From positions 1-61,116 of the forward strand of contig JAPLKN010000074.1 of the NCBI GenBank assembly GCA_026388075.1: DNA of 61,116 nucleotides. Reading direction: 5' to 3'. How positions within the stretch are numbered: the first letter of the stretch is position 1; each line of letters opens with the position of its first letter. Below, piece after piece: positions 1 through 41,795 of this stretch. This DNA is from Elusimicrobiota bacterium (GTDB lineage Bacteria; Elusimicrobiota; Endomicrobiia; Endomicrobiales; JAPLKN01). The notes under the pieces are model-generated. The model was not told where the DNA came from, made no database searches, and worked only from the letters and a program-made list of their open reading frames with translations. Both the position numbers and the translations under genes were made by a program.

Positions 1-3000
1 ATTATTTACAAAATTATAATCATAACTTACCGATACTTGCGTCTTTTGCAGGCTCCCGTCCCAGCTATAGCTATTACCGTTAATAGTTGAGCTTGTATCG
101 TAGAAGTAATTTTCTTTCATTACAATTCCCGCAGTATTAACAGTACCATCAATTTTGGCAGGAGTTGTAATTTTTGTTTTTAAAACCGTTTGTCCGTATT
201 CAGAAGCACCCCCGTAAACATTTCTTTCTAGTACATTTTTTGAGGAATCATTATCATACGTAATGTTTATACCGATCTTTTGCAGGCTTCCGTCCCAGTT
301 AATAATGTTCCAGGGATGAGCTATACTTCCATCACTGCCGTTACCATCAAGATCGCCCGAACTGCCGGTCTCCGTAAAAGTAGTGCCATAACCATAGACT
401 TCAGTCCTGTTTTGAGAGTTATCGGTATAATTAACTTCAATCCCATTAACTAGAACGCTAAACTGAAGGCCTTCATGACGCAGCTGTCTTAAAACAAGCT
501 GATGATACGAAGCCAGGAGCGTCGCATCGCAATAAGTATAAATTTCTCTATACGATTTTGATTGATTGCCGTTAATACTATAATACAAAACGTCCATCTG
601 AGTTTTTTGCAGGCTCCCATCTGATGCCCTTGTATATAAATAAGTTTCAATCCTGTTTTCCGAGTTGTCTCCTCCCGAACCTATAAATACCATCTGACTT
701 TCTTTTATCTCGCCGCTAAAAGTACCGTAATTATAAGTTTCAGTGCCGTTTTGTATTCTGTTAAAATCATAATTTTTTGTCACCTTCCATGTCTGCCAAC
801 TGCCATCCGCCACTTTTACATATTGATGGGCCTCAGTTCTATCCTGGCTATGGTCAGCTTTATGAGAAACATCCAGATCAAAACCTTGGTAAACCATCGA
901 TGTCATAAGAGCTGAGTTGTATATTGTCATATCGCTTTCATAAGTAAAAGTTTTCGTATAGCTTTTTGCATAATCAATTGAATATTGAACATGAGCGGTT
1001 TCCATTTTTAGACTGCCGTCCGATTGGCGGTCAAAGGTGTAGGTCTCTGTCCTATCGTTTGAATTATCGTACAAACCATCATATACCAAATCCGTCTGAA
1101 CAAGTTCGCCTGAGGTTAAACCATAGAAATCATAAATATAAGTTTCGTTATAATCCTTAATCCAGTTTAGGTTATACCGCACTGAGGACCCTGTTTTCTT
1201 TAGGCTGCCGTCCGACTGGCGATCATATGTGTAGGTCTCTGTCCTCGCATCTGAATGGTCAGTAACACCGTCACTAAACTTCGTAGTTATTTCAACACTG
1301 CCATGCACAAGGCCGTATATAAAACTTTCATTGAAATCCTTTTGGGAAGTTAATGTATATCTGGTTTGAACTCCCGTCTTTTGCAGGCTCCCGTCCCAGA
1401 GAAATAGAAGTTCACCTGTTACTCCGTTACTGTTTATGTCCTGCGCAGCACCTTCCTTAACTGTCCTTGAATATGTATAGGTTTCAGTCCTGTCATTTGA
1501 ATTATCGGAAGTGCCGTCAAATGACATTACTGTCTGAACAAGCTCGCTTGAAACCAAGCCATAAGTGTAATTCTCAATATAATTTTTGCCCCAATCAACA
1601 ATATAATTGACAGAATTTCTTGTTTTCTTCAAACTGCCGTCGTCCTGGCTTGAATATAAATAAGTTTCAGTCCTGTTTTCCGATTGGTCAGAAGTTAGGC
1701 TGATATGTTTGCTTTTCTTTACGACTAGCTCGCCGGATATCATCACGTAACCGTAGAATTCTGTATAACTTTTTTGTAGTATCGCAGGTAAAGAAATATA
1801 AAATTTTATCGCGCTATATTCCACAGGATTACCGTTAACAACCTTTACATACAAGTCAGGTCCGGAGGCGGAATAACCGTTAGCGGCGGTAGCAAGCTCA
1901 TAACTGCCGGTATTATTTAAATCGCCGCTGCCTTTATAGACATAATCCGCACCAGTAGCAGAATCAATAAGCTTATATGCACCTGCCCCGTCAGAAACAG
2001 TAGTGGCTCCCATAAAACCAAAGTTTTTAATTGTTTGCACACTCATTGTGTCATTGAAATTGCTGCCTCCTTGTGAAAACCAAAAGTTTATACTCTGATT
2101 TTGTGAAATCGTATAAACTACCGAGACTTGAGTCTTTTGAAGGCTGCCGTCCCAGGTTATTAATTCATTCTGACTCGCATTCCCGTTTAGATCTCCGGTA
2201 GTCGCATTTTCCCGCAATGACCTTGCATACGTATAGGTTTCCAGCCTATCCTGTGAATGGTCAGAAAATAGCCCGACATATTCCATCCGGCTTTCTTTTA
2301 CCTCACCAGAAAACGTACTGTAACTATAAGTTTCAATCCCGCTTTTTTCAATCGTGTAAATATAATCTTTCCTTATTGTATACTTTCTCCAGCTTCCGTC
2401 CGCCACTTGAATATATGTATATATTTCATTTCGGTCCTGGCTGTGCTCGGCTAGATGCAATGCATCCTGGTTCAAACCCGCAATATCCATCTCAAGAACT
2501 TGAACAGTTCCATAGAGGTATATATTTGTTGAATATATAAGGGTTTTTCTATAATTCTTGCTGTAATCTTCTGTATAACGAACTTCCGTTATGGTTGATT
2601 TTAAAGTTCCGTCCACTTGTCTGGCATATTGATAAGTTTCTGTCCTATCTTCAGATTTGTTAACTAAACTTGTTCCGCTATGAGTCATCTCTGATATAAC
2701 AATTTCACCGGAAATAATTGAATATTTGTAGTTTTCAATGTAATCCCTGTGATTTGCAAATGATTCCTGAAAATATACAGGCGAATATATTTGGCCCGCT
2801 TTTGTATAAGTTCCGTCTCCATTGTTTATATAATTGTTGGCTAGAGTCGCAAGGACAAAAGAATTGCTCTCAAACACATAATCTATGCCATTTGAATTGA
2901 CAATTTTATACCCGTTAGCCGTTGGAATAGTAGTTATTCCTGATAAGATATAGGATTGAATTGTCTGCAGATTTATAGGAGTGCTTACTACTTGCGAAGA

Positions 3001-3492
3001 ATTCGAAATACAAGAAAATATGTTGCTAGAATAATCAAGCGGATAAGCTACCGAGACTCGTGTTTTTTGCAGGCTTCCGTCCCATGAAGCAATAATATTG
3101 CCGTTTGAATCTTTAATGTTTGTGCCAAATGTATAATCTTCTCTAACCGGGATTCCAACAGTTGCAGTTCCGCCATTGTTCATCTGATAGATAATTTTTG
3201 TTATTAGAACTGATTTACCGTACTCAGCAAGTCCTCCGTAAATACTTACTTCTAAAGTATTTTTTGCGGCGTCATTATCATAAGTAATTTTAATACCGAT
3301 CTTTTTTAAACTCCCGTCCCAGGCATAGGTTGTAACTCCGTCATTTAAATTTATCCCGTAAGTATAAATTCCCGTTCTGTCTTGAGAATGATCGATAAAA
3401 CTAGTGCCTGGAATGCACACTGCCGTCCGTAGACAGCTGCCTGGTATAAGTATAAATTTCAATTCTGTCATCTGATTGATCCGGATTCGCAT
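1..3492 (-). CDS. Partial CDS whose C-terminal part runs off the window at position 1. It holds about 1,160 codons of the same YD-like repeat protein as the giant ORF upstream, and is most likely that gene's out-of-frame continuation rather than an independent gene.
   Basis: Hand translation of the minus strand gives ..IPGTSFIDHSQDRTGIYTYGINLNDGVTTYAWDGSLKKIGIKITYDNDAAKN.. from 3420 downwards and ..DGSLQKTQVSVSYDYNFVNN at 60..1. Codon phase is identical at both ends (low coordinate = 1 mod 3). No stop-bounded minus ORF is listed in 1..3400, consistent with one open frame cut by the window edge. The in-frame ATGs at 3492 and 3471 have no Shine-Dalgarno. Confidence 0.7.
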   Translation of the reverse strand, partial: MRIRINQMTELKFILIPGSCLRTAVCIPGTSFIDHSQDRTGIYTYGINLNDGVTTYAWDGSLKKIGIKITYDNDAAKNTLEVSIYGGLAEYGKSVLITKIIYQMNNGGTATVGIPVREDYTFGTNIKDSNGNIIASWDGSLQKTRVSVAYPLDYSSNIFSCISNSSQVVSTPINLQTIQSYILSGITTIPTANGYKIVNSNGIDYVFESNSFVLATLANNYINNGDGTYTKAGQIYSPVYFQESFANHRDYIENYKYSIISGEIVISEMTHSGTSLVNKSEDRTETYQYARQVDGTLKSTITEVRYTEDYSKNYRKTLIYSTNIYLYGTVQVLEMDIAGLNQDALHLAEHSQDRNEIYTYIQVADGSWRKYTIRKDYIYTIEKSGIETYSYSTFSGEVKESRMEYVGLFSDHSQDRLETYTYARSLRENATTGDLNGNASQNELITWDGSLQKTQVSVVYTISQNQSINFWFSQGGSNFNDTMSVQTIKNFGFMGATTVSDGAGAYKLIDSATGADYVYKGSGDLNNTGSYELATAANGYSASGPDLYVKVVNGNPVEYSAIKFYISLPAILQKSYTEFYGYVMISGELVVKKSKHISLTSDQSENRTETYLYSSQDDGSLKKTRNSVNYIVDWGKNYIENYTYGLVSSELVQTVMSFDGTSDNSNDRTETYTYSRTVKEGAAQDINSNGVTGELLFLWDGSLQKTGVQTRYTLTSQKDFNESFIYGLVHGSVEITTKFSDGVTDHSDARTETYTYDRQSDGSLKKTGSSVRYNLNWIKDYNETYIYDFYGLTSGELVQTDLVYDGLYDNSNDRTETYTFDRQSDGSLKMETAHVQYSIDYAKSYTKTFTYESDMTIYNSALMTSMVYQGFDLDVSHKADHSQDRTEAHQYVKVADGSWQTWKVTKNYDFNRIQNGTETYNYGTFSGEIKESQMVFIGSGGDNSENRIETYLYTRASDGSLQKTQMDVLYYSINGNQSKSYREIYTYCDATLLASYHQLVLRQLRHEGLQFSVLVNGIEVNYTDNSQNRTEVYGYGTTFTETGSSGDLDGNGSDGSIAHPWNIINWDGSLQKIGINITYDNDSSKNVLERNVYGGASEYGQTVLKTKITTPAKIDGTVNTAGIVMKENYFYDTSSTINGNSYSWDGSLQKTQVSVSYDYNFVNN

Positions 3493-6400
3493 ATCCAGCA
3501 ATTATTTGGGCCTTGTTAACCATACTCTTTTGAATAACCTGGCCTAACGAAGCGTTGTATTCATATGTATATTTCTCAATTCGGCTTTGTGTTTTGTCAA
3601 ATTGATTAATAAAATCATCAAATACAGTAGATATTTTTTTAAGACTGCCACCCCATACAAAAGCATCCCAAGGAATAGCTGATCCATCGCTGCCGTTACC
3701 GTTTAAGTCGCCGGTAATGGCATCTTCCTGCAGTGATCTTGCATACGTATAGGTCTCAGATCTAACATAGGAACTATTAGCGCCTAGTCCGCAGTGGACC
3801 ATTTTTGTCTGTACAACGTCTCCTGATATAAAATTATAATAATATACTTCGTAATAATTCTTATCAGTTAGGCCAGGGTTGGGAGTAATACCGTTTAAAT
3901 TTACATATGTTACATCAGTTCTTGTTCTTTGAAGAGAACTGTCCGCTCCGGTTTGCCAATCGTAAGTGTAGGTTTCTGTCCAACACTGGGATTGATCCCA
4001 ATATTGAGTCGCGTTAATTGTGTATTGGTTAATATGTGTCTTATTTAGCTGAACTAGCTGACCGTAATATGTACCACCGCTACTGCTAAGACCGTATGTA
4101 TAACTTTCAGTATAATTATCTGCAATATTATAATGTGTTGCGCCGACTGAATAATCGCAATTCACTGAAGCTTTCTGAATTGATCCGTCTTCCGCTGTTA
4201 AATATGAATAAGTTTCGGTACGGCTCTCTGATTTATCGGTTACGCCGTCGTGAACCATTGTAACTAGCTTAATATTGCCTTGCCTAATGCCGTAAATATT
4301 GCTTTCATCATAATTTTTCTGGGAATTTAGCGTATATCTGACTTGAATCCCGGTTTTCTGAAGGCTCCCGTCCCAAGTAAAAGTAGTACCGGCTGAAGAA
4401 ACGCTATTTGCATGGGAATATGTCTCAAACCTGTCTTGCGAATGGTCAGAAATTCCGATATGCTTTTTTATATATTCAACAATTTCTCCGCTTTGATTTT
4501 GATACGCTATTGTTTCCGTATAACTTCTCGGGTCAGGGTCCAAACTTTTTATGGGATTAACATTAAAAAACATTGCGCTGTATGTCTTATTATCTTTAGT
4601 ATAGTATGCTGTACCTAAAGAACTATAGCCATTATCTGCTGTGGCAAGTTCATAACTATTTACATCATCAATAGGGCCACTTCCTTTGTACACATAGTTA
4701 TAAAGCTGATTATTATAACTACCTCTAAGCACATATGAGTTCCATGCACTCTCATAAACCGAGACCGCACCCTTATTAATAAAATATTCAATTGTTTTCG
4801 CAGTAATTGTTCCATTTATAGCTTGTTGTGCATATATTCCCGTAAAATTATTGTTTTGTTGCAAGTATGGCGGAATAGAATAGCTAACAGAAACACCAAC
4901 CTTTTGCAGGCTCCCGTCCCAAGAGTAAGTATCATTTGTGTCTCCGTCATTATTCAAGTCTCCGGAAGTATTTTCATCAACGGATCTTCCATAAACATAT
5001 CGTTCAATCCTGTCTTCTGAAGTGTCATTATAGCTAATGCCACCTACATCAAAGGAAAGACCTGTATGAATCATTGCAGTCATAACAAGCTGGTGATAGT
5101 TATTCCCGGCAGAGTCAAAAGTATCGAACAAATACTGTTCTCTATAATTGTTGGCAACGTTTACATCATAAATAACGTCAGTTTGGGTTTTTTGCAGGCT
5201 GCCGTCCGCCTGCCTTGTATAAGAAAAAGTCTCTGTCCTGTTTGATTGATATTGAGAATAATCGAAATATACTACTTGACTTTCCTTTATCTCGCCGTAA
5301 AACTTGGCATAGCTGTAGGTTTCTCTGCTATTTAGTGCTGTAGTATATAAATAATTTTTTTCTATCGTATTAATTTTCCAACTACCGTCTGCCACCTGTG
5401 TATATGTATAGGTTTCAACCCTGTCTTGACTGTGGTCCGCTATGTGTGCCCCATCCTGATCAATGCCGGCATATATTACGTTTGCTTCAAGTTCAAAAGT
5501 AGATCCGTATGTGTATGCGTCACTTATATAGCTAAAGCTTTTTCTATAACTTTTGTTATAATCGGTTGTGTAGTGAACCTGCAAGATTTGAATCTTTAAA
5601 CTGCCGTCAAACAGCCTTACATATTGATAATTTTCTATTCTGTCTTCGGATTTATCAACCGAACCGATATGCTCCATTTTTATCAGAGAAGTTTCTCCGG
5701 ATACTAGATCATAGGAGTAATTTTCAATATAACTTTTCGGGTCCGGCAATATTGGATTTACAAAGTAAATCACGCCGTGTAATGTAGAATCCGAAATCCT
5801 CATATATAACCTTTCTGGTTCAGGACCAACATCTACATACCCGTTGGCTAGGGTTGCGGCTTCATAACTGCTAGGGTCTTCAAAAGCACCGCTGCCTTTA
5901 TATACATATGGAACACCGGAAGCAGAATCAACAAGTTTTTGATAAAATCCTGCTGCAGCACCGCTGGCAGTAGCGCCCCGGCTAGCCAGGACTTGAATCG
6001 CTTCTCCTGGCATTGTTCCATCAATTTGGCCAGTGCCAAAACTAAAGCTATTGCTCTGATAAAAACCTGGAATGCCATAAGTTACTGAAACACTTATCTT
6101 TTGCAGGCTTCCATCCCATTCAGCAATAATATTGCCGTTTGAATCTCTAATATCTGTTCCGTACGTATAATCCTGTCTTTCAGAGTTTCCGCTGGCATTA
6201 ATTGTCCCGTCAGAATTTAGGGGTGTGGTAATTTTGGTTTTTAGAACAGCTTGACCAAACTCAGCAAGCCCTCCGTAAACATCCGTTTCTTGGATGTTCT
6301 TTGAAGAATTATTATCATATGTAATCTTAATTGCGGTTCTTTTCAAACTCCCATCCCAGTAGCTGGTAGTAACTCCGTCAGAACAATTTGTACCGTATGT

Positions 6401-9400
6401 ATAATCTTCTGTCCTATTTTGCGAGCCGTCAACAGAATTTGTATGCCTCAACTGTGTCATTACAAGCTGGCCCGGTTGTAAATCATAGAAATAGCTTTCT
6501 GTATAATTCTTAGCTGAAATTAAACTTTCCAAAGGATTGGAAAAAAATACCTGGCTATATCTTATTTGATAGGAGGTTTGAATGCCGGAAGGATAATAAT
6601 ATCCTGTCTTCCAGTAACGTCCGTTGCTTACATTAGCATTATAACCATTGGCTGCAGTCGCAAGCTCGTAACCCTTACCGTTCCATACATAATCAATATC
6701 AGTAGCTGAATCAATAAGCCTATAACCTTCAACTATACTTGCATTAATAGACCCTCTATAATAAACCGTAGTTGCTCCCTTTGCGATAAGGCTTTGAAGT
6801 GTTTCCCCGGACATTGTTCCGCTGTATTGATTATTATAAGTATCGTAATCGCAACCGAAATAAATAAAAGAATAATTATCCTTTTGATACGTATTATAAG
6901 TTACGGAAGCCTTAGTCTTTTGTAAACTTCCGTCGTCCGCTTGCCTTTCGTATTCATAAACTTCTGTCCTATCGTTTGACCTGTCTACATTTATGTTATT
7001 AGGATCATTAACATTGCCGGAATAGGGAAGTTGTTTATAGATCAAGCTTCTTTGCACAACATCACCTATCGAATTATCATATTCATATGTATATTTTTCA
7101 ATACGACTTTGCGCTTTATTAAACACATAATCAAAAACGGTCTGAGTCTTTTGCACACTGCCGTCCCAATTAAAAGTATCATTTGTATCTCCGTCATTGT
7201 TAAAGTCGCCTATGACTCTAAAAGCTTCAAGAGTTGTTGCCGTATTATAAGTGAATTGAACCGCAGGCCCATTAAATGTCAGGGAAATTTGGAATGCGTT
7301 GTCTGACTTATTTATAATATAGTATGTATAATTGCTGTGTATTCCTTCAGGCGTGAACACCCCGCTGAACTTCACCAAATCTCCGTTACTAAAATTGTGT
7401 TCAGTCATATTTATAACATTATTTACTCCGGAACTGACCGTGCAACTGCCTTCGTCTTTAAATTCAGAAATATTCGTTCCATAAGTATATGTCTCAATCC
7501 TTTCATCCGAACGGTTAATAACAGATCCTTCATGCATCATGGCTTCTAAAACCTGTTTTCCTGCTTCCATGCCATAACCAAATACTTCGTAATAATTTTT
7601 ATCACTAAGCTCAAAATTATTTGTTCTGTTCGAGTCCCTATTAATATATGTTACGTCAGTTCTTGTTTTCTCAAGTTTCCCGTTCCATGAATAATAATGA
7701 TAAAAGACGGAATTGTCATTACTAATTGTTGAAGATGTACCGTAAGTATAATTTTCTCTCCAGCACTGTGTCTGGTCAGAATATGTAGTTCCATTAATAA
7801 CGTACTCGTTTATATGTGTTTTGCTGGTCATTACCAGCTGATTGTAATTAATACCTCCGGCATTAAGACCGTATGTGTAGCTTTCAATATAATTCTTTGC
7901 GGTATTATAATGAGCGCCATTAGCCGAATAATCAACAGTTAATGAATCCTTTTGTATTGAACCGTCATCAGCAACCCTTGTATATGTATAGCTCTCGGTT
8001 CTGCTTTCTGATTTATCCGTAACTCCGTCGTGAATCATAGAAATCAATTCAAGGCTTCCCTGCTGTATTCCCCAGACATAGTTTTCTTCATAATCTTTAT
8101 TGTAATTTATTGTGTATCCTACCTGTGTTCCAGTCTTTTGAAGGCTTTCGTCCCATGTTGACGCCCCTACACTTCTTCCATATGAATAGGTCTCAATCCT
8201 GTCCTGCGAATGGTCAACAAGCCCTGTATGCTGCATCTTATATTGTGTTAATGTCCCGGATTGATTCTTGTAAGCTATAACTTGCGTATAATTCTTTGCG
8301 TTTGGAGGAAGTTTTGTTAAACCGTGGTCAAAATATATAGGGCTGGATGTTAATTGGCCAGCATGCTGATCGTAGTAATAACTGGTTGCAAGTTCGTAGT
8401 TATTCGGATCATAATAATCGCCGCTTCCTTTATAAACATATTCTAGCCCCGAAGCAGGATCAATAAGTCTATAATGTTTGCCATTATAACCATTTGCATC
8501 ATATACAATAGCTGCTCCCATTAAGATAAGCGCCTGTATCACAAGCCCTGACATTGTTTCGGATTTGGGGCTATTGTATGTAAAATCAAACTCATCGGTT
8601 TGGTAAAAGTCTGCAAGGTTAGAATAATTTACTGAAACTCTGGTCCTTTGAAGGCTTCCGTTCCAGTTATAGGGAGTAGTAGTACCATCGCTTTCGGTGA
8701 TAGTGGCACTCGTCCCGTATTCGTATTCTTCCTGATAGCATTGCGATTTGTCCGAATAATCTATACCGCCGATCGTGTATTTGCTTATGTGCGCTTTTGA
8801 TAACTGCACCAACTGGCCGTAATCTGTAGTTCCATCCGCGCTCTTTAATCCATAAGTATAATACTCAACGTAGTTATTGGCTACATCGTAACTTACTCCG
8901 TTTACTGAATAATCAACTGAAGCTGATCCTTTTTGTATTGTTCCATCCGCCGCTGTTATATAGGTATAGTTTTCAGTCCGGCTTTCTGATTTATCCGTTA
9001 CCCCGTCGTGAACCATTGTTATTTGTTCAACATCACCCTGGCGAATCCCATAGATATAACTTTCATCGTAGTCTTTCTGCGAATAGGTTATATGCCTTAC
9101 TTCAACATTCGTTTTTTGTAAACTTCCGTCCCAGGCATAAGGCGTTCCGCCTATATTCAGGCTTGTCGCATAATTGTATGTTTCTATCCTGTCTTCAGAA
9201 GTGTCTCCGCCGTTTGTCCCGATATGTTTCTTTTTGTACTCCACTACTTGCCCGTTTTGGTTTTGGTAAGCCGTTGTTTCCGTATAGTTCTTGTAATCCG
9301 AAAATAAATATTCTACCGATACTTCCGTTTTCTTAAGTGTGCCGTCCCAAGAGTAAGTATCAGTTGTATCTCCGTCATTGTTCAGGTCACCGGAAATAGC

Positions 9401-12400: not shown

Positions 12401-15400
12401 TAATTGGTGATAGGCTGCAAGCTCTGCAAAATCACAATATGTATATGTTTCTTGATAATTCCTTTGGTCAGTTGATCCGTAATTTACTGTGGTCTGGGTT
12501 TTCTGCAGGCTTCCGTCTGTCTGTCTTTCATATTGGTAGGTTTCGGTCCTGTCTTGTGAATGATCGTACGATAAACTTGTATAATTAATCTCGCTTTCCC
12601 TTATTTCGCCATAAAATGTGTCATAGCGGTAAGTTTCTAAAACGTTTTTAGCATTTGTTCTTGTAAATAACTTTTCAACCGTCCAAATCTTCCAGCTCCC
12701 GTCTACCGCCCGGCTATAATTATAGTTTTCTGTCCTGTCTGCAGTATGATCTGCAGTATAAAAAGTGCCGTCCGATAAGTACCAATCTAAACCGCTATAT
12801 CCTGCAGATGTTTGAAGCGCGGCGCCCCATCTTGTCATGTCTTTTTCATATGCAAATGTCTTCGTGTAGCATTTGTTATAGTCCTGTAAATATAACACCT
12901 GCATCGCTAAAACTTTTAATGTCCCATCTGCCTGTCTTACAGCATCACTTGGATTTTGCGAACCCGTCTGATTGTAATGATATAACTCAGCCCGGTTTTC
13001 TGAAGCATCCATTAAATTTATGTGCGCCATACCGCCTAAAACTATCTCGCCGCTGGCTACCTGGTAACCGTAATGCTCAGTGTAGTTCCTTGCATCATTT
13101 GTGCCGTATGTAACAGTACTTTGCGTTTTCTGCAGGCTCCCGTCCCAAATAAGGTTGTATTCTCCGCCTATGAATAATCTGCTTAATGTAGGATCTAAAA
13201 CTAAACTAAAAGTATTTCCGTAGCTGTAATCCTCTCTTGTAGGCGGATCGTTTAAGTTTATCGTCCCGTCATAATTTAAGTGTTCGGTTATTTTTGTCTT
13301 TAATACTGTCTGGCCGAATTCTTGGTATCCCCCGTATATATCTATTTCGTGAACATTCTTCGTCGGATTGTTGTCATACATTATCAATGTGTCTATCTTT
13401 CTTAAACTGCCGTCCCACGCATATGTAATAGCACCGTCACTTGAACTCGTGTCGTAGTCGTAACTTTCTGTCCTGTCCTGCGAATGGTCTGCCGAAAATC
13501 CGTTTGTAGCACTGTCTAACCCCTGATGACGCATCTCGTTCATTACTAATTGTCCGTTTTGCCAATCATAAGTATAAGTGTTTATTTCTTCGTAATCCCT
13601 CATAGCAAATAATAAATAATTTACTCTAATGTCCGTCTTTTGGATACTGCCGTCCGTCTTCCTTTCATATTCATAAACTTCTATCCTGTCGTTTGACCTG
13701 TCTACATTCGTATTATTGGGGTCGTTTACATCACCTGCGTACGGTATCGCGCTATATATCATCATGCTTTGAACTACGTCACCTAACGTATTATCAAATT
13801 CGTAAATGTAGCCCTCTATTCTGCTTTGCGTCTTGTTATATGTGTAATCAAATATAACTTGCGTTTTCTTTAAGCTGTTGTCCCAACTGTATGTAACACT
13901 GTTATATATCACGCTTCTGCTATATGTGTAAGTTTCGATCCTGTCCTGCGATGTGTTTGTCCCTCTTCCGGTATGCGTCATTGAATTTTGAACGTTTTCA
14001 CCATACTGTAATTCGTATGTGTAATACTCATCATAACTTCTTTCCGTAAGCAACGTATTTTCAGTACTGTCCAAATTGATATATGTGTAATGCAGCCCTG
14101 TCTTTTGAAGGCTACCATCACCCGCTAATGATCTGCTATAATCGTATTCTTCCTTCCAGCACTGCGATTGGTCTATCAAACCATTAAGTAAGAATGTTGT
14201 TATGTGATCCTTCCCGGTCTGTACAAACTGGCCTTCAACTACACCGTAGTAATAATTCTCTATGTAGTTTTTGGCTACGTTGTAACTAATCCCGTTTGCC
14301 GAATAGTCTACCGCCGTCATAAGCTTTTGCAGTGTTCCGTTAGCTGATCTGAAATAAGTGTAGCTTTCAGTCCTTGTTTCCGAATTGTCTATTACGCCAT
14401 CATGCACCATCTGGACTAATGATAACTCCCCGTCATCTAAACTGTACACATAGCTTTCATTGTAATCTTTCTGCGTATTTAATAAATACTGCACACGTAA
14501 TCCTGTCTTTATTAAACTGCCGTCTGCTTGCCTTTGATCAAATAAATATGTTTCGGTCCTGTCGTTTGAATGATCATATACTCCGCTATATATCATTGAT
14601 GTCTGAAGCATTACGCCGTGTACTATCTCATAACCATAGATTTCAGAATAGTTTTTCCCTATATCTAAAACATAACTTACATCTAACCTTTGTTTCCTTA
14701 ATGTCCCGTCACTAAAAATATCGTAAGTTATCCCTTCAATTCTGTCCTGCGAATCGTCATAAATATAATTATATACCCTTGAATATTCTTGCCAGTTCTG
14801 ATATCCGTCAAGCCTGAAATAGTTTTGCGTTAAATCGTAATCTTTGTTGGTGTTAACGCTGTACCTCACTTGCGTTCCTGTCCTTAACACCCCCTCACCA
14901 CCGGTAAAAGGTACTCTTGTGTAAGTGTACGTTTCAACGCGGTCTTTGGACATATCCGTTACGCCTATACCGGGAACTCCTCCGCCGCCGCCGCCGGGAA
15001 TTATCGTTTGATAAGTAAAACTTCTCTGCACCATCTGGCCTACAGTGTTATCCGCCTCAAATGCGTATATCTCAGCGTGGCTTTCTAACACGTTGCCGCT
15101 TTCAGAAGTGTATTCTATGTCGCTCCTGATTTTCCTTAACACGTCATCGTAATATCTCATGTAGGTATAACTTTCTGTCCTGTCCTGGCTGTGATCCGTG
15201 TATCCGTAATAACTCATCGTCTTGATTACCACATCACTATAACTGCTTACATCAAATGTCTGGGTTATTTTATAACTCTTGGCGGTATTTATTGTGTACT
15301 TAACGTCTGTAATTGTGTTTTGTATGCTGTTATCTGATTGGGTTTGGTATGTGTAGGTCTCTACCCTGTCTTTTGAATGGTCGTTATATCCTGTTACGGT

Positions 15401-18400
15401 CTTTTTAGTAATTCTGTTTATCGAATCATCCCAGAAATTGTTAAATGTGTATTTTTCTACGTACCCGTCGTTTACCCCTGCGCCAAGTAGTATGTAGTCG
15501 TATATATCCCCGTTTACGTTTACTTGGTAAGTGTGTTCAACACCGTCCTGGTCAGTTATTACTTCAAGACCGCCTGAATTCTTTACAAAAAATTGGTTTG
15601 CGCGATAAGTTATTACCGTATTTGTTGTGTTTGTTGACTTAAAACTCTTTCCGCCAGCCGTAAAGCTTTTGTTTAATCCGATTGTAAGTTGAGCTTTTTC
15701 ACTGTAAAACGACGCTGAAGACAGTGCTGATAATATGTTGTCGTCACTATATCCGTAAATTGTTCCTTTAAAATACCAGCCGTCAATATCATCGTATTCG
15801 TTTGCGTTTATGGCTTCCCCAACTGCATACTGAAACGACGCCTGGCTGTTTATCTGCGCCTGGCTCTGCCTGCCGCCTGCACTCGGGTTTGCAAAGTATA
15901 CGTTGTCCGTGTAAGCTATTCCGTCAGTCACCTTAAACTTGCCTTGCTCTAAACTTAACTTTGCGCCTGAATAAATCCTGTAATCAGTCCCTTTAAACTT
16001 TATTACTATGTCTTGCGTTGTTACTAAATCGCCGTCGTTGTCTATCTCAAATCTTGCCAGGTTTGTTTCACTGTATTCTTTTCCTAAAGGCCCTGTCATC
16101 TTTTGTTCTGAAAGAAGATATATCTGGCCGTATGCGTTTTCTAATCCTTTAAATATGCTGATCTTGTCCCCATCATTGAAACTTAACGTAAAACTGCCTT
16201 GCGTGGTTGATATCAGCCGTTTGCCCGATCTTTCCCTCACTGAAAACTTTGATTCACCTGCCCAGTAATAGTCGTCTTTTAGTTTTATTGATTCAGTGTT
16301 TTTCCCGTTAGATATGTAGCCATCACCTGTCACCTTGAATGTAAATCCTCGTTTTATGTCAAACTTGCCGAAAAATGTTCCGGTGTCTTGGTTTGACGTC
16401 ATTGTAAACGTGCCGTGCGCCCTTGCTACTGCTGTAAGCAATGTCACCGTATCACTGGGGTTTGCCTGATACACTGTCTGAAAATTTAAACTTACTTCAT
16501 CGCCTGATATTGATTCAAATAGGTTTTCGGATACATCATATCCTGTAGCAATTTTTTTGAGGTCTTCTTTTGATATGTATGCTTGCGCGTCCTGGCTTCC
16601 TTTATACCATTGCCCGTAGTTAGTTACTAAACTGCCTGATTTTACATTGACTGCTATATCATCTATGTAAATTTTAGAACCTGCCAACGCTCTTGTTCCT
16701 ACGCCTGTTACTGCCCAGCGGCCTGCCCTTAAAGATATCACTGCTTCAGGGCCTGATACACCGTATCTGTTCCAGTCTTCGGTTATTATCCCTTTGGTCC
16801 TTACCTTATTGTGATAAAAATAGCCTATCTCGTCCTGCACTGTTGCGTAAATCTTGTCGGTTAATACCGTTATCGTTCCATCGTATTCCATACGAACGTT
16901 TATTGTCTGGTCAGGATCAAATGTTATTCCTTCACGCGTTTTTAATTTCAGGTCAGTCGTATTAAAACTAAAATACAATGTCTTTAAATTGTCATCATAT
17001 GATATGTTCGTTATCCCGGGCGCTTTACTTAAAAATGTTAAACTTGATAACCTCTGCGGAGGAAGTGTTACCTGGACGCTGTTTATGTACGTCATTATGT
17101 TTTGCCCAAATACCATCTTCGCCATTACGCCTTGATAGTCCACTTCGTTCCAGGTTGTCATGTCTTTGTTGAACGTAGAATCTTGAATTGCATAATTTAT
17201 TATTGAATTTGATAAATTCAAGCTTTTCAGTGCGTTAAATACTATTTGGTATGTTACGCTTGTCCAGGTGTTTATGTCAGTTGAAATGCCGATAAGGTTA
17301 TTGTATGTCTGCTGGATGTGTGTTACGAGGTTTGAATATCCGGTTGCAAGAAAGTCTTTTGTGCTTTGTGATATCTGAAATACGCCAGTCATGTTAAGGT
17401 TCTGTGTAAGTATGTCTATGTATGTCCCAAGTGATGCAAACTTTTGCCAGCCGGCTGAAAAATTAATAAAGTCCCCAGGATTTAAGCCTTCTAAAAATGT
17501 TTTGACTTCTTTTAAGTAGTCTTCACTAAGTTTTGATATTGAAAATAGGTTTATCGGGTTTGCTAGGATCCCTGCAAATACGGCTGCCTGTTTTATTGCT
17601 TTTTCTTTAGGATCGGATAGTCTTGGGTCTTTGGTTATGTCTAACATCAAATTAACTACAAACTTTAGTTCGTCTACGAATGAAGTAAATAAGTTCGGAT
17701 TGTATATTTCTTTGGATATTGTGTTTTGGTTTAGGTTTAATAATGCGTTGTATGTCATATCTTCGTTAATCCGTACAACGCTGTTTGTTATGTCTGCTGA
17801 ATAGACCTTGTTGTCTATTGGGCTTAAGTACCCTATTTGGCCGTTCCAGTAGACCATTCCTGTTTCAGCGTTGTATGAATACGAGTATGTAGGGAGATAT
17901 CCCCCTGTCAGGCTTTCTAGGATTGTCTTTGATACTGTTTCTTTGGCAAGACTCGCTGATGTCAGTATTACGCCGCCAAGATTGTTTATCCATTGGCTTT
18001 GCGTCATTGTCTTTTGTATGCCGTTACTATCCAAATAATATATTATGTCGTTTACTACTTTTGTAGCTGTCACATAATGGTCTTTCAAATAAAGTATTAC
18101 TTCCCCTGTCTTTAATGCTTCTTTGAGTCCTTCAATATTTACCTGGAATGCGTTTAAGATCAGGCCGTTCAGTTTTGCTACTGTCTGGATTGCTGACATG
18201 CTTGTCACTATCTGGTTTAACGCTTTGCTTTTTACTAAATCAAATGTGCCTGAAAAGATGTCCACCAAAAGCAGTGTTAAGCCAATTGTCGTTTTTTCTA
18301 GTGTATCTTTTACACCTAACAAAGTGCTTAGCGATTCTACGGCGCAGTTTATTACTGTCCCTCCGCCGGCAAAAAAATCAGCTAAAAACACATATATAGT

Positions 18401-19408
18401 TTTTAGCTGGTCTTTTGTTACGTTAGCTGTTATGTTCAGTTGCTCGGATATTGATTTTAAGATTTTGTCGGTTTGATTGCTTATGGTATCACTTGCTGTT
18501 TGCGGGTTGACCCCGTTAGAGAATATTCCTATCAATAGTTGCTGGTATATTGAAATAAAATCAGTTTGTAGTTGTATTTCGTTTCCTTGATTGGCAATGT
18601 CTTGGGATTCTCTAACGGGGTTGATCAGTTTTTGTAAAAGGTTTAATAGTTCTGGAATGGTTTGAATATTTACAAGTGCTGTTGGGGCTAGTATTGTTTC
18701 TTGCGTTGCTTGGGTTATTTCAGTTTGGGTTGTCGGGGTTTCGATTGCAGGTTGTTCAGATGTTTCTTGAATTGGTTCTGTCTGGATTGCGTTTGCGGGA
18801 TTGGTTAAAGCTTTTGCTTCGGCTGTTGGCGGTGCAGGAATTGTTTGACTTGCCAGCTCTTGCGCCTTTTTCGCTTTTTCTATTTCGTCCTTCGCGCCCT
18901 TCTTTATCATCATCACGTCTACGGGCAGATTTTTGTTCTTGAAATATTGCAGGCATGCCTGCTTTAAACCTTCGTTTCCTTCTTTTGAAAACTTGCCGTC
19001 GCCTTTCGGGGTGTATGCGCTTTCGCCGTTCCAAAAGCCTATCGGTCGCCAGGACTTTTTGTTTTGCTCTAAAACAGATATTACGCCGTTGGTTTCTACT
19101 TTAACTTTGAGTTGCGCTATTGCTGCTGGTGTGTAGGGGATGTTTGGGTTGGATAAAACGTATTCTATTCGCTCTTTGTCTTTCTTTTCTTTTTCGCCGG
19201 GTAAGTCAGTACGCGCTGCAAATGCGCTCGGGCCTAATATGTTTGTTATAAAACACACCGTAATTGTTACCGCGATTACTTTGTTTACGTAATACGCGCG
19301 TAAATAATTACGCGACATAAATATAATGTATTGACGGCAAAAATAAACCGTTTGCTTGAGAAAATCTTTTATCTTATCCATGATTTTACCCTCGCAAATA
19401 ATATTCAT
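3401..19408 (-). CDS. Giant secreted repeat protein of 5,335 aa. Order of parts: N-terminal signal anchor, T/Q/P-rich linker, C39-like peptidase-like domain, about 800 aa of beta-rich non-repeat region, then roughly 45 YD/Rhs-like units of about 55 aa.
   Basis: Single uninterrupted ORF in the track. A hydrophobic segment VIAVTITVCFITNILGPSAFA-A lies at residues 44-65. The repeat consensus read by eye is h-H-x-G-x-x-D-x-S-x-D-R-x-E-x-Y-x-Y-x-R-x-x-DGSLQK-T-x-x-x-V-x-Y..KNY-x-E-x-Y-x-Y. The more likely start is the second ATG at 19381 (MDKIKDF..), which has GAGGGT 6 nt upstream. All plus-strand ORFs inside are repeat-composition artefacts. Confidence 0.9.
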   Translation of the reverse strand: MNIICEGKIMDKIKDFLKQTVYFCRQYIIFMSRNYLRAYYVNKVIAVTITVCFITNILGPSAFAARTDLPGEKEKKDKERIEYVLSNPNIPYTPAAIAQLKVKVETNGVISVLEQNKKSWRPIGFWNGESAYTPKGDGKFSKEGNEGLKQACLQYFKNKNLPVDVMMIKKGAKDEIEKAKKAQELASQTIPAPPTAEAKALTNPANAIQTEPIQETSEQPAIETPTTQTEITQATQETILAPTALVNIQTIPELLNLLQKLINPVRESQDIANQGNEIQLQTDFISIYQQLLIGIFSNGVNPQTASDTISNQTDKILKSISEQLNITANVTKDQLKTIYVFLADFFAGGGTVINCAVESLSTLLGVKDTLEKTTIGLTLLLVDIFSGTFDLVKSKALNQIVTSMSAIQTVAKLNGLILNAFQVNIEGLKEALKTGEVILYLKDHYVTATKVVNDIIYYLDSNGIQKTMTQSQWINNLGGVILTSASLAKETVSKTILESLTGGYLPTYSYSYNAETGMVYWNGQIGYLSPIDNKVYSADITNSVVRINEDMTYNALLNLNQNTISKEIYNPNLFTSFVDELKFVVNLMLDITKDPRLSDPKEKAIKQAAVFAGILANPINLFSISKLSEDYLKEVKTFLEGLNPGDFINFSAGWQKFASLGTYIDILTQNLNMTGVFQISQSTKDFLATGYSNLVTHIQQTYNNLIGISTDINTWTSVTYQIVFNALKSLNLSNSIINYAIQDSTFNKDMTTWNEVDYQGVMAKMVFGQNIMTYINSVQVTLPPQRLSSLTFLSKAPGITNISYDDNLKTLYFSFNTTDLKLKTREGITFDPDQTINVRMEYDGTITVLTDKIYATVQDEIGYFYHNKVRTKGIITEDWNRYGVSGPEAVISLRAGRWAVTGVGTRALAGSKIYIDDIAVNVKSGSLVTNYGQWYKGSQDAQAYISKEDLKKIATGYDVSENLFESISGDEVSLNFQTVYQANPSDTVTLLTAVARAHGTFTMTSNQDTGTFFGKFDIKRGFTFKVTGDGYISNGKNTESIKLKDDYYWAGESKFSVRERSGKRLISTTQGSFTLSFNDGDKISIFKGLENAYGQIYLLSEQKMTGPLGKEYSETNLARFEIDNDGDLVTTQDIVIKFKGTDYRIYSGAKLSLEQGKFKVTDGIAYTDNVYFANPSAGGRQSQAQINSQASFQYAVGEAINANEYDDIDGWYFKGTIYGYSDDNILSALSSASFYSEKAQLTIGLNKSFTAGGKSFKSTNTTNTVITYRANQFFVKNSGGLEVITDQDGVEHTYQVNVNGDIYDYILLGAGVNDGYVEKYTFNNFWDDSINRITKKTVTGYNDHSKDRVETYTYQTQSDNSIQNTITDVKYTINTAKSYKITQTFDVSSYSDVVIKTMSYYGYTDHSQDRTESYTYMRYYDDVLRKIRSDIEYTSESGNVLESHAEIYAFEADNTVGQMVQRSFTYQTIIPGGGGGGVPGIGVTDMSKDRVETYTYTRVPFTGGEGVLRTGTQVRYSVNTNKDYDLTQNYFRLDGYQNWQEYSRVYNYIYDDSQDRIEGITYDIFSDGTLRKQRLDVSYVLDIGKNYSEIYGYEIVHGVMLQTSMIYSGVYDHSNDRTETYLFDQRQADGSLIKTGLRVQYLLNTQKDYNESYVYSLDDGELSLVQMVHDGVIDNSETRTESYTYFRSANGTLQKLMTAVDYSANGISYNVAKNYIENYYYGVVEGQFVQTGKDHITTFLLNGLIDQSQCWKEEYDYSRSLAGDGSLQKTGLHYTYINLDSTENTLLTERSYDEYYTYELQYGENVQNSMTHTGRGTNTSQDRIETYTYSRSVIYNSVTYSWDNSLKKTQVIFDYTYNKTQSRIEGYIYEFDNTLGDVVQSMMIYSAIPYAGDVNDPNNTNVDRSNDRIEVYEYERKTDGSIQKTDIRVNYLLFAMRDYEEINTYTYDWQNGQLVMNEMRHQGLDSATNGFSADHSQDRTESYDYDTSSSDGAITYAWDGSLRKIDTLIMYDNNPTKNVHEIDIYGGYQEFGQTVLKTKITEHLNYDGTINLNDPPTREDYSYGNTFSLVLDPTLSRLFIGGEYNLIWDGSLQKTQSTVTYGTNDARNYTEHYGYQVASGEIVLGGMAHINLMDASENRAELYHYNQTGSQNPSDAVRQADGTLKVLAMQVLYLQDYNKCYTKTFAYEKDMTRWGAALQTSAGYSGLDWYLSDGTFYTADHTADRTENYNYSRAVDGSWKIWTVEKLFTRTNAKNVLETYRYDTFYGEIRESEINYTSLSYDHSQDRTETYQYERQTDGSLQKTQTTVNYGSTDQRNYQETYTYCDFAELAAYHQLVMTEMSHIGLQYTDGNGNIVTDTSEDKTEHYTYGNLVDEIVSGDMNGDGDTTDTYSWDGSLRKTQTSCVYTASSQKNYIEKTAYQTIEGIAVEKQKKYIGTNDNSNDRIETYSYARSAGAATWDGSLQKVEQQVRYAVSSQKDYDETYTYKIVQGDTELAVLVHDGIYDDSESRTESYTYYLNAEDGSVQKAMMSVDYSVNGVNYNVSKNYVEYYTWGLKNVDRTIDYGQLVMLTKTHISTYELNGQVDASQNYQEEYEYGTSATITENDGTTTTYYWDGSLQRTKVSVRYSNLPYFYQDNNFYFEYWSGTFGSHRLIYTAHGTMEGSAILALLAKGATAVYDSTTGKYKLIDPASGMTYVYKDNGTDINNPDNYTLADIFWLIRHWFNKAGETVYLDHPLTTIPDDPKNYSMDIAYQNINGKVVEYKMKYTGTQDHSKDRLETYGYATSIQEYSTDLNGNGTTNDSIIWDGSLQRIQTVFDYTFNKSQNHIENTVYEYDNTLDSVVQRSMVYSGLPYSGDVNDSNNTNVDRSNDRIEFYGYTSEEDGSIQKTNTKVFYSFNIARNYEEQYTFDIGIRDGGGNIVTNYGELVMTQLRHQGLSFTVGTEIYTDNSQNRTETYIYGTDYFDGTTDYSWDGSLKKVETITVYDNDASKNVQETEVYGGLVEYGRVVLMAKITTPLNYDGSVNTSASIKREDYTYGNSFNITLDSSSPLSIGGAPVNLSWDGSLQKIQTSVSYGAADSRNYDEHYAYQIEDSEIVMTGMEHYNSVDKSENRVEIYGYERVTDGSLKINNSAVYYLTDYSKSYTKSVVYWDVNTYGSALETRITYQGLDGYLKDNTLYIADHSKDRIEDYTYTQAADGSWKTYTIDRSFTKVTTQSVRETYSYASFYGETKESQIVYEGLSSDRSQDRTETYQYERQIDGSLQRIETEASYLQEPAKSYNETYTYCNPVQLSTYHQLVMTLMVHNGLSYTEGVVTDTDTSNDRIENYTYGTSVNEAISGDLNNDGDTTDTYSWDGTLKKTEVSVEYLFSDYKNYTETTAYQNQNGQVVEYKKKHIGTNGGDTSEDRIETYNYATSLNIGGTPYAWDGSLQKTNVEVRHITYSQKDYDESYIYGIRQGDVEQITMVHDGVTDKSESRTENYTYITAADGTIQKGSASVDYSVNGVSYDVANNYVEYYTYGLKSADGTTDYGQLVQLSKAHISKYTIGGIDYSDKSQCYQEEYEYGTSATITESDGTTTPYNWNGSLQRTRVSVNYSNLADFYQTDEFDFTYNSPKSETMSGLVIQALILMGAAIVYDANGYNGKHYRLIDPASGLEYVYKGSGDYYDPNNYELATSYYYDQHAGQLTSSPIYFDHGLTKLPPNAKNYTQVIAYKNQSGTLTQYKMQHTGLVDHSQDRIETYSYGRSVGASTWDESLQKTGTQVGYTINYNKDYEENYVWGIQQGSLELISMIHDGVTDKSESRTESYTYTRVADDGSIQKDSLTVDYSANGAHYNTAKNYIESYTYGLNAGGINYNQLVMTSKTHINEYVINGTTYSDQTQCWRENYTYGTSSTISNDNSVFYHYYSWNGKLEKTRTDVTYINRDSNRTNNFELSDKNYYEVFGYGMEAGKQVLEAMMHEGSVINRSDERIETYTYGTNISEFKDEGSCTVSSGVNNVINMTEHNFSNGDLVKFSGVFTPEGIHSNYTYYIINKSDNAFQISLTFNGPAVQFTYNTATTLEAFRVIGDFNNDGDTNDTFNWDGSVQKTQTVFDYVFNKAQSRIEKYTYEYDNSIGDVVQRSLIYKQLPYSGNVNDPNNINVDRSNDRTEVYEYERQADDGSLQKTKASVTYNTYQKDNYSFIYFGCDYDTYNNQYSGTMSGETLQSLIAKGATTVYYRGSINASIVEGYRLIDSATDIDYVWNGKGYELATAANGYNANVSNGRYWKTGYYYPSGIQTSYQIRYSQVFFSNPLESLISAKNYTESYFYDLQPGQLVMTQLRHTNSVDGSQNRTEDYTYGTNCSDGVTTSYWDGSLKRTAIKITYDNNSSKNIQETDVYGGLAEFGQAVLKTKITTPLNSDGTINASGNSERQDYTYGTDIRDSNGNIIAEWDGSLQKISVSVTYGIPGFYQSNSFSFGTGQIDGTMPGEAIQVLASRGATASGAAAGFYQKLVDSASGVPYVYKGSGAFEDPSSYEAATLANGYVDVGPEPERLYMRISDSTLHGVIYFVNPILPDPKSYIENYSYDLVSGETSLIKMEHIGSVDKSEDRIENYQYVRLFDGSLKIQILQVHYTTDYNKSYRKSFSYISDAYTYGSTFELEANVIYAGIDQDGAHIADHSQDRVETYTYTQVADGSWKINTIEKNYLYTTALNSRETYSYAKFYGEIKESQVVYFDYSQYQSNRTETFSYTRQADGSLQKTQTDVIYDVNVANNYREQYLFDTFDSAGNNYHQLVMTAMIHTGLSFDVGGISYNDTSEDRIERYVYGRSVDENTSGDLNNDGDTNDTYSWDGSLQKVGVSVSYSIPPYLQQNNNFTGIYAQQAINGTITAKTIEYFINKGAVSVYESAWNSYVLRGSYNNQLYNYVYKGSGPIDDVNSYELATADNGYSSLGTAYYTKDNKTYSAMFFNVNPIKSLDPDPRSYTETIAYQNQSGEIVEYIKKHIGISDHSQDRFETYSHANSVSSAGTTFTWDGSLQKTGIQVRYTLNSQKNYDESNIYGIRQGNIKLVTMVHDGVTDKSESRTETYSYLTAEDGSIQKASVNCDYSVGATHYNIADNYTESYTYGLSSSGGTYYGQLVQLNKTHINQYTINATQYWDQSQCWTETYTYDWQTGADSSLQRTRTDVTYVNLNGITPNPGLTDKNYYEVYYYNFISGDVVQTKMVHCGLGANSSYVRSETYTYARSLQEDAITGDLNGNGSDGSAIPWDAFVWGGSLKKISTVFDDFINQFDKTQSRIEKYTYEYNASLGQVIQKSMVNKAQIIAGYANPDQSDDRIEIYTYTRQLSTDGSVHSRH
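17954..18376 (-). other. C39-like (papain-fold, bacteriocin-processing type) cysteine peptidase-like domain inside the giant ORF (residues ~345-485).
   Basis: GGGTVINC(355)AVESLSTLLG matches the xCGxAxLxMxLxxxG nucleophile motif. TSMSAIQTVAKLNGLILNAFQV matches the GTSLxGLxxAAxxLG helix. GEVILYLKDH(444)YVTATKVVNDIIYYLD(460)SNG..QWINNLGGVIL matches PxIxHWxxxHFVVLxxxxxxxxxIxDPxxG..eFxxxWxGxxL. The Cys codon is at 18344-18346. Confidence 0.6.
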
Positions 19409-29447: not shown

Positions 29448-30152
29448 TTATTCCTTTCTCTCAAATCCAAACATTTCACTGATATTGACTATTTTATACC
29501 CCTGCTTTTGAATTCCTTCAATTATTTCGGGCAAGGACTCAACCGTAGTTTCGTGTTTACCGCCCCCGTCATGCATTAAAAATATAGCGCCGGGCATTAA
29601 GTGTTTTAGGTATTGCTGCACCATTTCTTCCTTGGACATTTTTTTCCAGTCACAGCCGAATGTCCAGCTGATGATTTTATAATTTTTTTCTCTTGCCGCA
29701 TCCTTAACCCATTGTCTTACAAATCCGTACGGCATGCGAAGTAAAACCGGCTTGAATTTTAAAATTTTTTCTATCGTTTGTTCGGCTTTTTCAATTTCTC
29801 TTGCAAGAATTTCTTTTTTATCTTCTTTTTCATATTTCCAAAAGTTTGGATGGCTATAAGAATGACTCCCAATTTCAAAGCCGCCTTCCAATACTTTACG
29901 AGCTATTAAAGGTCGTTTTTCTATCTGAGAGGCTTCCATAAAAAAAGTCGCTTTTATGTTGTACTTTGCAAGGATTTCAAGGATTGGTTCTGTATAAAGC
30001 CCGGGGCCGTCATCAAAAGTCAACGCGACAAGCTTTTTGCCGGCAGATCCTTTTCCGTAGAAAATATTATTTTCTGAACTGTTTAACGGAATTGAAAGAA
30101 ATATTATTGAAAAGAAAAGACAAAATGTTCGGAAAGAATTTTTTGTAAGCAT
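29448..30152 (-). CDS. Secreted polysaccharide deacetylase (NodB homology domain).
   Basis: Signal peptide. NodB motifs LTFDDGPG, ..HSYSHPNF.., ..RMPYG.., ..FLMHDGG. Confidence 0.88.
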   Translation of the reverse strand: MLTKNSFRTFCLFFSIIFLSIPLNSSENNIFYGKGSAGKKLVALTFDDGPGLYTEPILEILAKYNIKATFFMEASQIEKRPLIARKVLEGGFEIGSHSYSHPNFWKYEKEDKKEILAREIEKAEQTIEKILKFKPVLLRMPYGFVRQWVKDAAREKNYKIISWTFGCDWKKMSKEEMVQQYLKHLMPGAIFLMHDGGGKHETTVESLPEIIEGIQKQGYKIVNISEMFGFERKE

Positions 30153-35273: not shown

Positions 35274-35304
35274 TGCCGCCGCCTTTTTATCCCGTCATTA
35301 GTTT

Positions 35305-36300: not shown

Positions 36301-36317
36301 GAGACCTCCCAAAAACA

Positions 36318-36405: not shown

Positions 36406-36409
36406 GCCG

Positions 36410-37285: not shown

Positions 37286-37299
37286 CAGATCCTCCTAAA

Positions 37300-41775: not shown

Positions 41776-41795
41776 AATTAATATTTTCTTAAAGA

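Follow-up and report, generated by a model that had tools for sequence, protein, structure and literature searches.

The DNA analysed here, referred to below as the window, is a stretch of 61,116 nucleotides (nt) that makes up the entire contig JAPLKN010000074.1 of an Elusimicrobiota bacterium (assembly GCA_026388075.1), and its first 19.4 kb carry a gene for a giant repeat protein with a predicted export signal. On the minus strand, positions 3401-19408 form a single ATG-initiated open reading frame (ORF) of 5,335 codons. Directly downstream of this ORF the +1 frame is open for another 1,140 codons, from position 3420 to base 1 at the window edge, and its product (P0002) is built of the same repeats as the first piece. 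The chance of meeting such open frames in this base composition is P ~1e-169 for the first and ~1e-36 for the second. An earlier reading of the window, made from the letters alone (the sequence-only reading), had described a giant secreted repeat-protein gene that runs off the window edge, with about 1,160 further codons of the same repeat family beyond the ORF. Both the gene and the additional frame are there, and only the figure has to be corrected to 1,140. Since the window is the whole contig, it is the end of the contig that truncates the giant gene.

The two frames are parts of one gene of at least 6,469 codons. At the junction of the two pieces frame A reads ...YTYTRQLSTDGSVHSRH* and frame B reads VCIPGTSFIDHSQDRT..., and removal of the minus-strand A at position 3409 (context TCC-A-GGC) gives ...TDGSVHSGTSFIDHSQDRT... 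and a frame of 6,469 codons without a stop. It is this extra base, which lies outside any homopolymer, that shifts the frame into a TAG stop at 3401-3403. Compared with its paralogues, the repeat unit at the junction lacks ~40 residues, but it is in frame after removal of the single base. A programmed +1 frameshift at UCC-AGG-C, with AGG as a hungry codon, was rejected as an explanation, AGG being common here with 69 occurrences in the ORF.

A gene split in this way might be a pseudogene, or the frameshift and the truncation might be artefacts of sequencing and assembly, which would make the two-ORF anatomy biologically meaningless. The one-base indel, the shortened junction unit and the ending of the contig within the array would all fit such an explanation, as would the fact that the only long homologous contig (L001, described below) is chimeric exactly at the array start. 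However, the 19.4 kb are open apart from one base, the motifs of the repeat unit are well kept across its 66 copies, and the other window genes that were checked match Pfam profiles over nearly their full length, for example the 1,049-aa AcrB, whose match covers profile positions 3-1020 of 1021. Repeat collapse during assembly is also unlikely because the copies are too diverged as DNA, the best of them being ~84% identical over ~56 nt and none exceeding 78% over 100-250 nt. For the same reason the suggestion that the array could be an assembly chimera of several paralogues finds no support. We therefore regard a pseudogene or an artefact as quite unlikely. With 30-57% identity between its copies in protein, and ~84% at most in DNA over short stretches, the array is old and maintained, neither a recent expansion nor an artefact. 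Coordinates of the gene and its parts are collected in Table 1.

Table 1. The giant gene and its features, in positions of the window (residue numbers, aa, are those of the 5,335-codon ORF)
Feature	Position	Strand	Basis or remark
Giant gene, two frames joined by a 1-nt indel	1..19408	-	3' end past contig end
Single extra base (minus-strand A)	3409..3409	-	Deletion restores frame
N-terminal export signal (aa 1-65): basic n-region, hydrophobic VIAVTITVCFITNILGPSAFA, PSAFA|A site	19214..19408	-	
Conserved ~110-aa domain (aa 66-175)	18884..19213	-	No known family
Variable T/Q/E/P-rich linker (aa 176-320)	18449..18883	-	Largely missing from P0001
Candidate papain-like (C39-like) peptidase domain (aa 321-500)	17909..18448	-	Sub-threshold Pfam match
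Unique region (aa 501-1342)	15383..17908	-	No family assigned
Repeat array, 66 copies (some partial) of a ~62-aa unit	1..15382	-	Iterative hidden Markov model, AlphaFold2, Foldseek
Insert module 1	11186..11443	-	No Pfam match; low AlphaFold2 confidence
Insert module 2	8375..8557	-	
Single-copy 62-aa module (aa 3990-4051), …NMTEHNFSNGDLVKFSGVFTPEGIHSNYTYYIINKSDNAFQISL…	7256..7441	-	Weak E1_FCCH and PHROG matches
Insert module 3	6578..6856	-	
Insert module 4	5807..6070	-	
Insert module 5	4535..4783	-	
Insert module 6	2833..3021	-	
Insert module 7	1777..2085	-	No Pfam match

The repeat array and its predicted fold

From residue 1343 the array takes up the rest of the visible protein, at least 5,100 residues. 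A hidden Markov model (HMM) built iteratively from the protein itself finds 66 matches to a unit of ~62 amino acids (aa), with the consensus DxSxDRTETYTYxRxxDGSLQKTxxxVxYxxxxxKNYxExYxYxxxxGxxVxxxMxHxG. The units are arranged in a super-repeat of ~965 aa, of which residues 1803-2787 and 2758-3747 are 48-57% identical while later copies are rearranged, so the hierarchical array described in the sequence-only reading is borne out. Seven insert modules of ~60-100 aa, with the consensus TMSGExIQxLIxKGATxVY...YxLIDxASGxxYVYKGSG..DPxSYELATAANGY, are irregularly spaced along the array, and all seven interrupt the unit in a single loop, the one that lies between profile positions ~33 and ~35. A further module of 62 aa is present as a single copy. 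It matches the Pfam family E1_FCCH weakly, at E=3.3e-5 and with 24.3 bits where the gathering cut-off is 29.5, and also phrog_4711 and phrog_7765 (E~3e-7), two PHROG families without a known function. Judging from these similarities, it is probably a small beta-barrel that is also present in phage proteins. The insert modules and this FCCH-like barrel are candidates for ligand-binding decorations of the array.

Domain searches were made with Pfam at E<=10 on tiles over most of the protein and with NCBIfam at E<=0.1 on two segments, residues 1-1340 and one 985-aa repeat block. In these searches, and against PHROGs, the repeats match nothing. RHS_repeat (PF05593) and YD_repeat_2x (TIGR01643) find no match on the repeat tiles or the block even at these permissive thresholds, and the unit profile finds nothing among PDB sequences. 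Run over the whole protein, a YD-repeat HMM made from Escherichia coli RhsA reaches -8.7 bits, and the unit HMM, run over RhsA, reaches -2.3 bits. Alignment of the two profiles with hhalign places RtEtYtYxrxxDGSlqkt in register with xxxYxYDxxGrLt, at a probability of 0.5%. The Rhs core (PxxxxDPxGL; Rhs_assc_core, TIGR03696) is absent from the visible 6,469 residues, a result that applies to that part of the protein and not to the unseen 3' part of the gene. Cadherin, Big, RTX and haemagglutinin domains are not found by the Pfam tiles or on the two NCBIfam segments either, in agreement with the sequence-only reading, which had recognised neither these motifs nor an Rhs core in the window. By sequence, the repeat is an orphan.

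Its predicted structure is less isolated. An AlphaFold2 model of residues 2282-2860 (579 aa), computed from an alignment of 11 non-overlapping paralogous blocks, has a mean predicted local distance difference test (pLDDT) value of 71 and reaches 85-94 over the first 220 residues. It consists of a run of strands of 9-10 residues, all in beta-hairpins, with low confidence in the insert module. A Foldseek search of the PDB with this model returns nine matches at E<=1e-3, and all of them are shells of the Rhs, Tc and teneurin kind: Tse15 (6.6e-8), teneurin-2, the Salmonella bongori Rhs core, YenB/YenC and TcdB-TccC, with probabilities of up to 1.0. Superposition of the model on these shells is poor, with template modelling (TM) scores of 0.1-0.23 and root-mean-square deviations above 20 A. 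The local sheet architecture, as modelled, matches that of Rhs-type shells, and because of the poor superposition an overall shape, whether tube, ribbon or cocoon, is not established. A fold search of BFVD gave no coherent signal. The units had been called YD-like in the sequence-only reading; in view of the model this is a fair structural label, whereas homology to YD repeats is not demonstrated and HMM, hhalign, Pfam and NCBIfam comparisons give the label no backing at the level of sequence.

The present protein shares with Rhs effectors such as Tse15, with TcB-TcC and YenB-YenC, and with teneurin a predicted continuous sheet of local antiparallel beta-hairpins, and with Rhs/YD proteins a loose resemblance of motifs (YxY..DGSL here, YxYD..GRL there). 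It differs from them in having no detectable sequence homology in its unit, in the size of that unit (~62 aa, against ~21 columns for the aligned RhsA YD repeat), and in an array of at least 5,100 aa with inserted domains, compared with 660-1,346 residues for the matched Rhs-type PDB chains.

These likenesses raise the possibility of a polymorphic Rhs/YD toxin or a Tc-like BC component, in which the array would form one or more closed cocoons around a C-terminal toxin encoded past the contig end and released by the aspartyl protease of an Rhs core. The best structural matches are indeed Rhs effectors, Tc BC components and teneurin, the motifs fall into register in hhalign, and the 3' end, where such a toxin would lie, is missing from the contig. 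On the other hand, RHS_repeat, YD_repeat and Rhs_assc_core remain without a match at permissive thresholds, so that profile searches do not make this an ordinary Rhs or teneurin-type toxin, as the sequence-only reading had allowed it might turn out to be. Rhs-type shells are also of roughly 650-1,400 aa, far short of the array, and the N-terminus carries a Sec signal and no PAAR, VgrG or TcA-binding region. A relative that retains the end of its array, described below, bears on the same question.

The N-terminal region

Two relatives reach into the region that precedes the array. A word-indexed search of 5.8 billion proteins with the N-terminal 1,340 aa found one homologue, P0001, which is 41% identical over the whole of this region (BLASTP), and a search with the C39-like region added one further N-terminal fragment, P0026.

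The sequence-only reading had placed a signal anchor with an AFA-A site at the start of the protein. A hydrophobic segment and a PSAFA|A site are both present and might act either as a cleaved signal or as an anchor. The true start of the protein is probably Met10 at position 19381, since a GAGGG motif stands 8 nt upstream of its ATG; gene callers elsewhere also begin there, which gives a protein of 5,326 aa (P0003). A hydropathy scan with a window of 19 residues and a threshold of 1.6 detects, besides the signal, two short stretches near residues 374 and 3617, neither of which looks convincing as a membrane span. We also observed a cysteine, Cys52, in the middle of the hydrophobic signal segment (within positions 19250-19290, minus strand). 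It is present in the window protein, P0001 and P0026, and its context is lipobox-like in P0001 (VAAC) but unlike a lipobox in the window protein (ITVC) and in P0026 (VAVC). The signal may accordingly be processed either as that of a lipoprotein or by signal peptidase I.

The domain that follows the signal is the most conserved part of the protein, being 67-69% identical in both relatives that cover it. It has no match in Pfam or PDB and is a candidate for a cell-proximal domain that anchors the protein or binds a partner. The T/Q/E/P-rich linker behind it is present as previously described.

A C39-like peptidase domain had also been proposed for the N-terminal region. The corresponding residues match Peptidase_C39 (PF03412) with E=0.001 and 19.3 bits, below the gathering cut-off of 22, over positions 41-129 of the 133 in the profile. 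Cys355, His444 and Asp460, in the order expected for such a peptidase, are invariant in P0001, the sole homologue that spans the whole region, and the equivalent of Cys355 is found in P0026 as well. Profile searches against the PDB returned nothing for this region and did not reach the solved C39 structures. An AlphaFold2 model of the N-terminal 1,200 aa, made from a two-sequence alignment, exceeds a pLDDT of 50 only in the C39-like part. Together, the conserved residues and the sub-threshold family match point weakly to a C39-like cysteine peptidase domain. The C39 domains of type I secretion ABC transporters (bacteriocin exporters and the C39-like domain of HlyB) offer the nearest comparison: it is the C-terminal two-thirds of PF03412 that is matched below threshold, and the conserved order Cys...His...Asp is shared. 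Unlike in those transporters, no ABC transporter is joined to the domain here, and no substrate with a double-glycine leader is evident.

The unique region between this domain and the array is predicted to be helical up to about residue 800 and beta-rich thereafter, according to the same low-confidence model (pLDDT 32). Pfam yields only noise in it (DUF2807, E=0.016), and PDB and PHROG searches yield nothing. A LamG-like stretch suggested for this part of the protein is not recovered, as LamG and Laminin_G profiles have no match at E<=10 on residues 521-1340.

Relatives of the protein and its possible role

Relatives of the repeat are very rare in public data. In the word-indexed search the 985-aa repeat block has no homologue except the second piece of the gene itself (P0002). 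When 1.84 billion representative proteins were searched exhaustively with the unit profile in HMMER, two non-self relatives only were found, and the longest protein returned is of 5,326 aa. The first relative, P0004, is a fragment of 186 aa on a 949-nt JGI contig (E=2.8e-33), and the second, P0005, is a protein of 2,290 aa on an 8.8-kb contig of ENA ERZ1426813 (E=5.3e-20). A scan of GTDB genomes with the N-terminus of the giant gene and scans of JGI metagenome contigs gave no relative. A genome scan with the DnaA of the window yielded nothing closer than a DnaA fragment of Anaerococcus with 29% identity, and this DnaA has no exact match on record. Four proteins with Big_9, cadherin or DUF5018 assignments (P0006-P0009) were rejected as relatives, the similarity being judged compositional and confined to ~35 profile positions. 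Their E-values of 1e-13 to 1e-8 come from scores summed over many repeats, and such sums can mimic homology.

P0005 has three units followed by a tail of ~2,050 aa that is acidic, rich in L, S, A and T and poor in K and R. Judged by composition alone, the tail would be helical. Pfam, NCBIfam and PDB hold no match to it, an Rhs core is absent, and none of its segments is hydrophobic enough to pass the threshold of the scan. The gene call ends 33 nt short of the contig end, and a 593-aa gene piece precedes it on the contig. Possibly, P0005 displays the C-terminal architecture of this protein family. If the window gene were P0005-like, it would encode ~8,500-9,000 aa or more, without a terminal Rhs core and toxin. 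An array that ends coreless and gives way to ~2,050 aa of helical-looking tail speaks against an Rhs toxin, and with this the toxin reading set out above becomes highly improbable in our view.

The other informative relative, P0001, lies on a contig of 738 kb (L001; ENA ERZ25039480, contig_27198). Upstream of the array the contig keeps several of the neighbours found in the window, namely TetR, AcrB fragments, a tRNA methyltransferase, an AP endonuclease and a polysaccharide deacetylase, and a protein of ~490 aa stands where the window has its OEP gene. L001 is chimeric, however. Its GC content rises abruptly from ~0.45 to ~0.65 exactly at the start of the array (14300-14600), and past this point no match to the window protein is left. 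Pfam labels of SU10_MCP downstream in L001 were set aside as belonging to unrelated high-GC DNA joined by misassembly. The presence of several AcrB fragments suggests an indel-rich long-read assembly. Genes of this kind break assemblies in every case seen here.

We propose that the array is an extended extracellular beta-sheet filament or open tube used for contact with cells or surfaces, and not a toxin capsule, a proposal to which we give about an even chance. According to it, one very large polypeptide would be exported through the Sec pathway, and the units of its array would build a continuous antiparallel beta-sheet like that in the wall of Rhs, Tc-toxin and teneurin shells. The array would stand outside the cell as a filament or open tube decorated with small inserted domains, the conserved domain behind the signal might serve as its cell-proximal anchor, and the C39-like peptidase domain might process the protein itself or a partner. 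The function would be contact with other cells or surfaces. A filament or open tube is preferred to a closed capsule because the array is ~5 times longer than the matched Rhs-type shells, and because Rhs cocoons are sealed and processed by a core that is missing at the array end of P0005. The window contains no Rhs core either, and a Sec signal together with a C39-like N-terminus is unlike what is found in Rhs/YD shell proteins.

Several observations weigh against this proposal. The alignment behind the repeat model has 11 paralogous rows only, all from one protein, and the superposition on Rhs-type shells is poor; the model of the N-terminal 1,200 aa, at a pLDDT of 32, is unusable. The gene, being frameshifted, may be inactive in this genome, and its 3' end lies past the contig end. 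No type I, II, V or VI secretion genes and no partners of a contact system are present in the 42 kb available. The adjacency of the giant gene to an OEP/MFP/RND efflux pump is conserved, but along with that of many unrelated genes.

A more specific version of the filament or tube would be a long hollow beta-sheet tube made of a single chain, in effect an Rhs shell unrolled and left open at its end, which would project from the cell and carry binding modules. It would be a conduit or harpoon with which a host or prey cell is attacked or drawn into contact-dependent exchange, with the N-terminal domain as its base and the peptidase for processing. We consider this very unlikely. If it were true, the protein would be a contact apparatus made of one polypeptide and unrelated in sequence to known secretion or adhesion systems.

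Giant proteins of Omnitrophota have been reported to carry C39 domains near N-terminal signal peptides (West-Roberts et al. 2023, 10.1101/2023.11.21.568195). The same proteins contain antiparallel beta-helix tubules of ~1,500 aa with regularly spaced external helices, which have been compared to Rhs, in addition to numerous transmembrane regions and a divergent SecA DEAD domain (10.1101/2023.11.21.568195). It has also been reported that the PF03412-only architecture forms the largest cluster, with 24 of the 779 Pfam-positive Omnitrophota proteins of at least 10 kAA (thousand amino acids) (Nielsen & Lui 2026, 10.64898/2026.06.07.730766). The window protein could accordingly be the N-terminal fifth or less of such an Archaeovorin- or Dockerin-type giant, a protein of >30,000 aa anchored in the inner membrane that carries SecA-like and enzymatic domains and acts in predation or episymbiosis. 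The logic of the N-terminus would be the same, with a signal peptide and an N-terminal C39 domain (matched below threshold in the present protein). Pfam-dark stretches of predicted Rhs-like antiparallel beta structure with external elements occur in both, both break metagenome assemblies, the present gene runs off its contig, and nucleoside catabolism genes lie in its neighbourhood. However, the visible 6,469 aa hold two marginal internal hydrophobic stretches only, far from numerous and neither of them convincing as a transmembrane segment, and no SecA-like, glycosyl hydrolase, glycosyl transferase, other carbohydrate-active or dockerin domain. The exhaustive search with the unit profile matched none of the Omnitrophota giants, having returned nothing above 5,326 aa, and P0005 appears to end after its long tail, with a stop 33 nt before the contig end. 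If P0005 is a guide, the full protein is probably under 10,000 aa. On this evidence an Omnitrophota-type giant is unlikely.

The filament or open tube proposed here follows a logic that is also seen in RTX and Bap adhesins such as LapA and MpIBP, in which a cell-proximal N-terminal region is followed by a very long repetitive extender. Those RTX/Ig-repeat adhesins have Big or cadherin repeats, a C-terminal RTX or type I signal and an ABC/MFP/OMP operon, none of which is found here.

The sequence-only reading had put the locus forward as an undescribed surface or contact system. This holds for the family, with its two non-self relatives among 1.84 billion proteins, and not for the kind, as similar giants have been described (10.1101/2023.11.21.568195). 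The general kind is already on record. What is new is the sequence family, whose YD-fold-like repeats belong to a giant exported protein and apparently reuse the wall architecture of Rhs and teneurin shells at ~5 times its usual length and in another domain context. If the filament or tube is real, the uses of YD-type beta-sheet would extend past the encapsulation of toxins, and the giant surface proteins of uncultivated bacteria, as yet poorly understood, would gain an independent sequence family. Reads can be recruited and such genes finished with the help of the unit profile and of the conserved domain near the N-terminus; the sequencing run SRR20698646 contains this organism.

Genes next to the giant gene

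The giant gene is divergent from a TetR-OEP-MFP-RND efflux set, beside which there is no ABC exporter. The remaining 35 kb encode nucleoside catabolism, the diaminopimelate (DAP) pathway, DnaA, RecJ, a GAF histidine kinase and a DNA methylase; no rRNA is present in the window. Because outer-membrane efflux and DAP synthesis are encoded, the organism is probably diderm, as far as its genes indicate.

Genes for nucleosides and pentoses are dense on the minus strand at 34869-44792 and 49807-52445, with RecJ, the GAF histidine kinase and DnaA interspersed. They comprise cytidine deaminase, a PfkB kinase, two purine nucleoside phosphorylases (PNP_UDP_1) and one pyrimidine nucleoside phosphorylase, a phosphopentomutase-like metalloenzyme, DeoC, RpiB, a split transketolase, PTAC and TIM. 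The nucleoside-scavenging, AT-rich neighbourhood noted in the sequence-only reading is thus confirmed by genes of nucleoside catabolism.

Two further groups of genes were observed, both on the minus strand. At 52458-55316 an FRG-domain protein, an N6/N4 DNA methylase and an ORF of 293 aa without a Pfam match lie together and may form a restriction-modification or defence islet. At 29448-31405 a polysaccharide deacetylase is followed by ORFs of 196 and 229 aa, neither with a Pfam match, and this trio is syntenic in L001.

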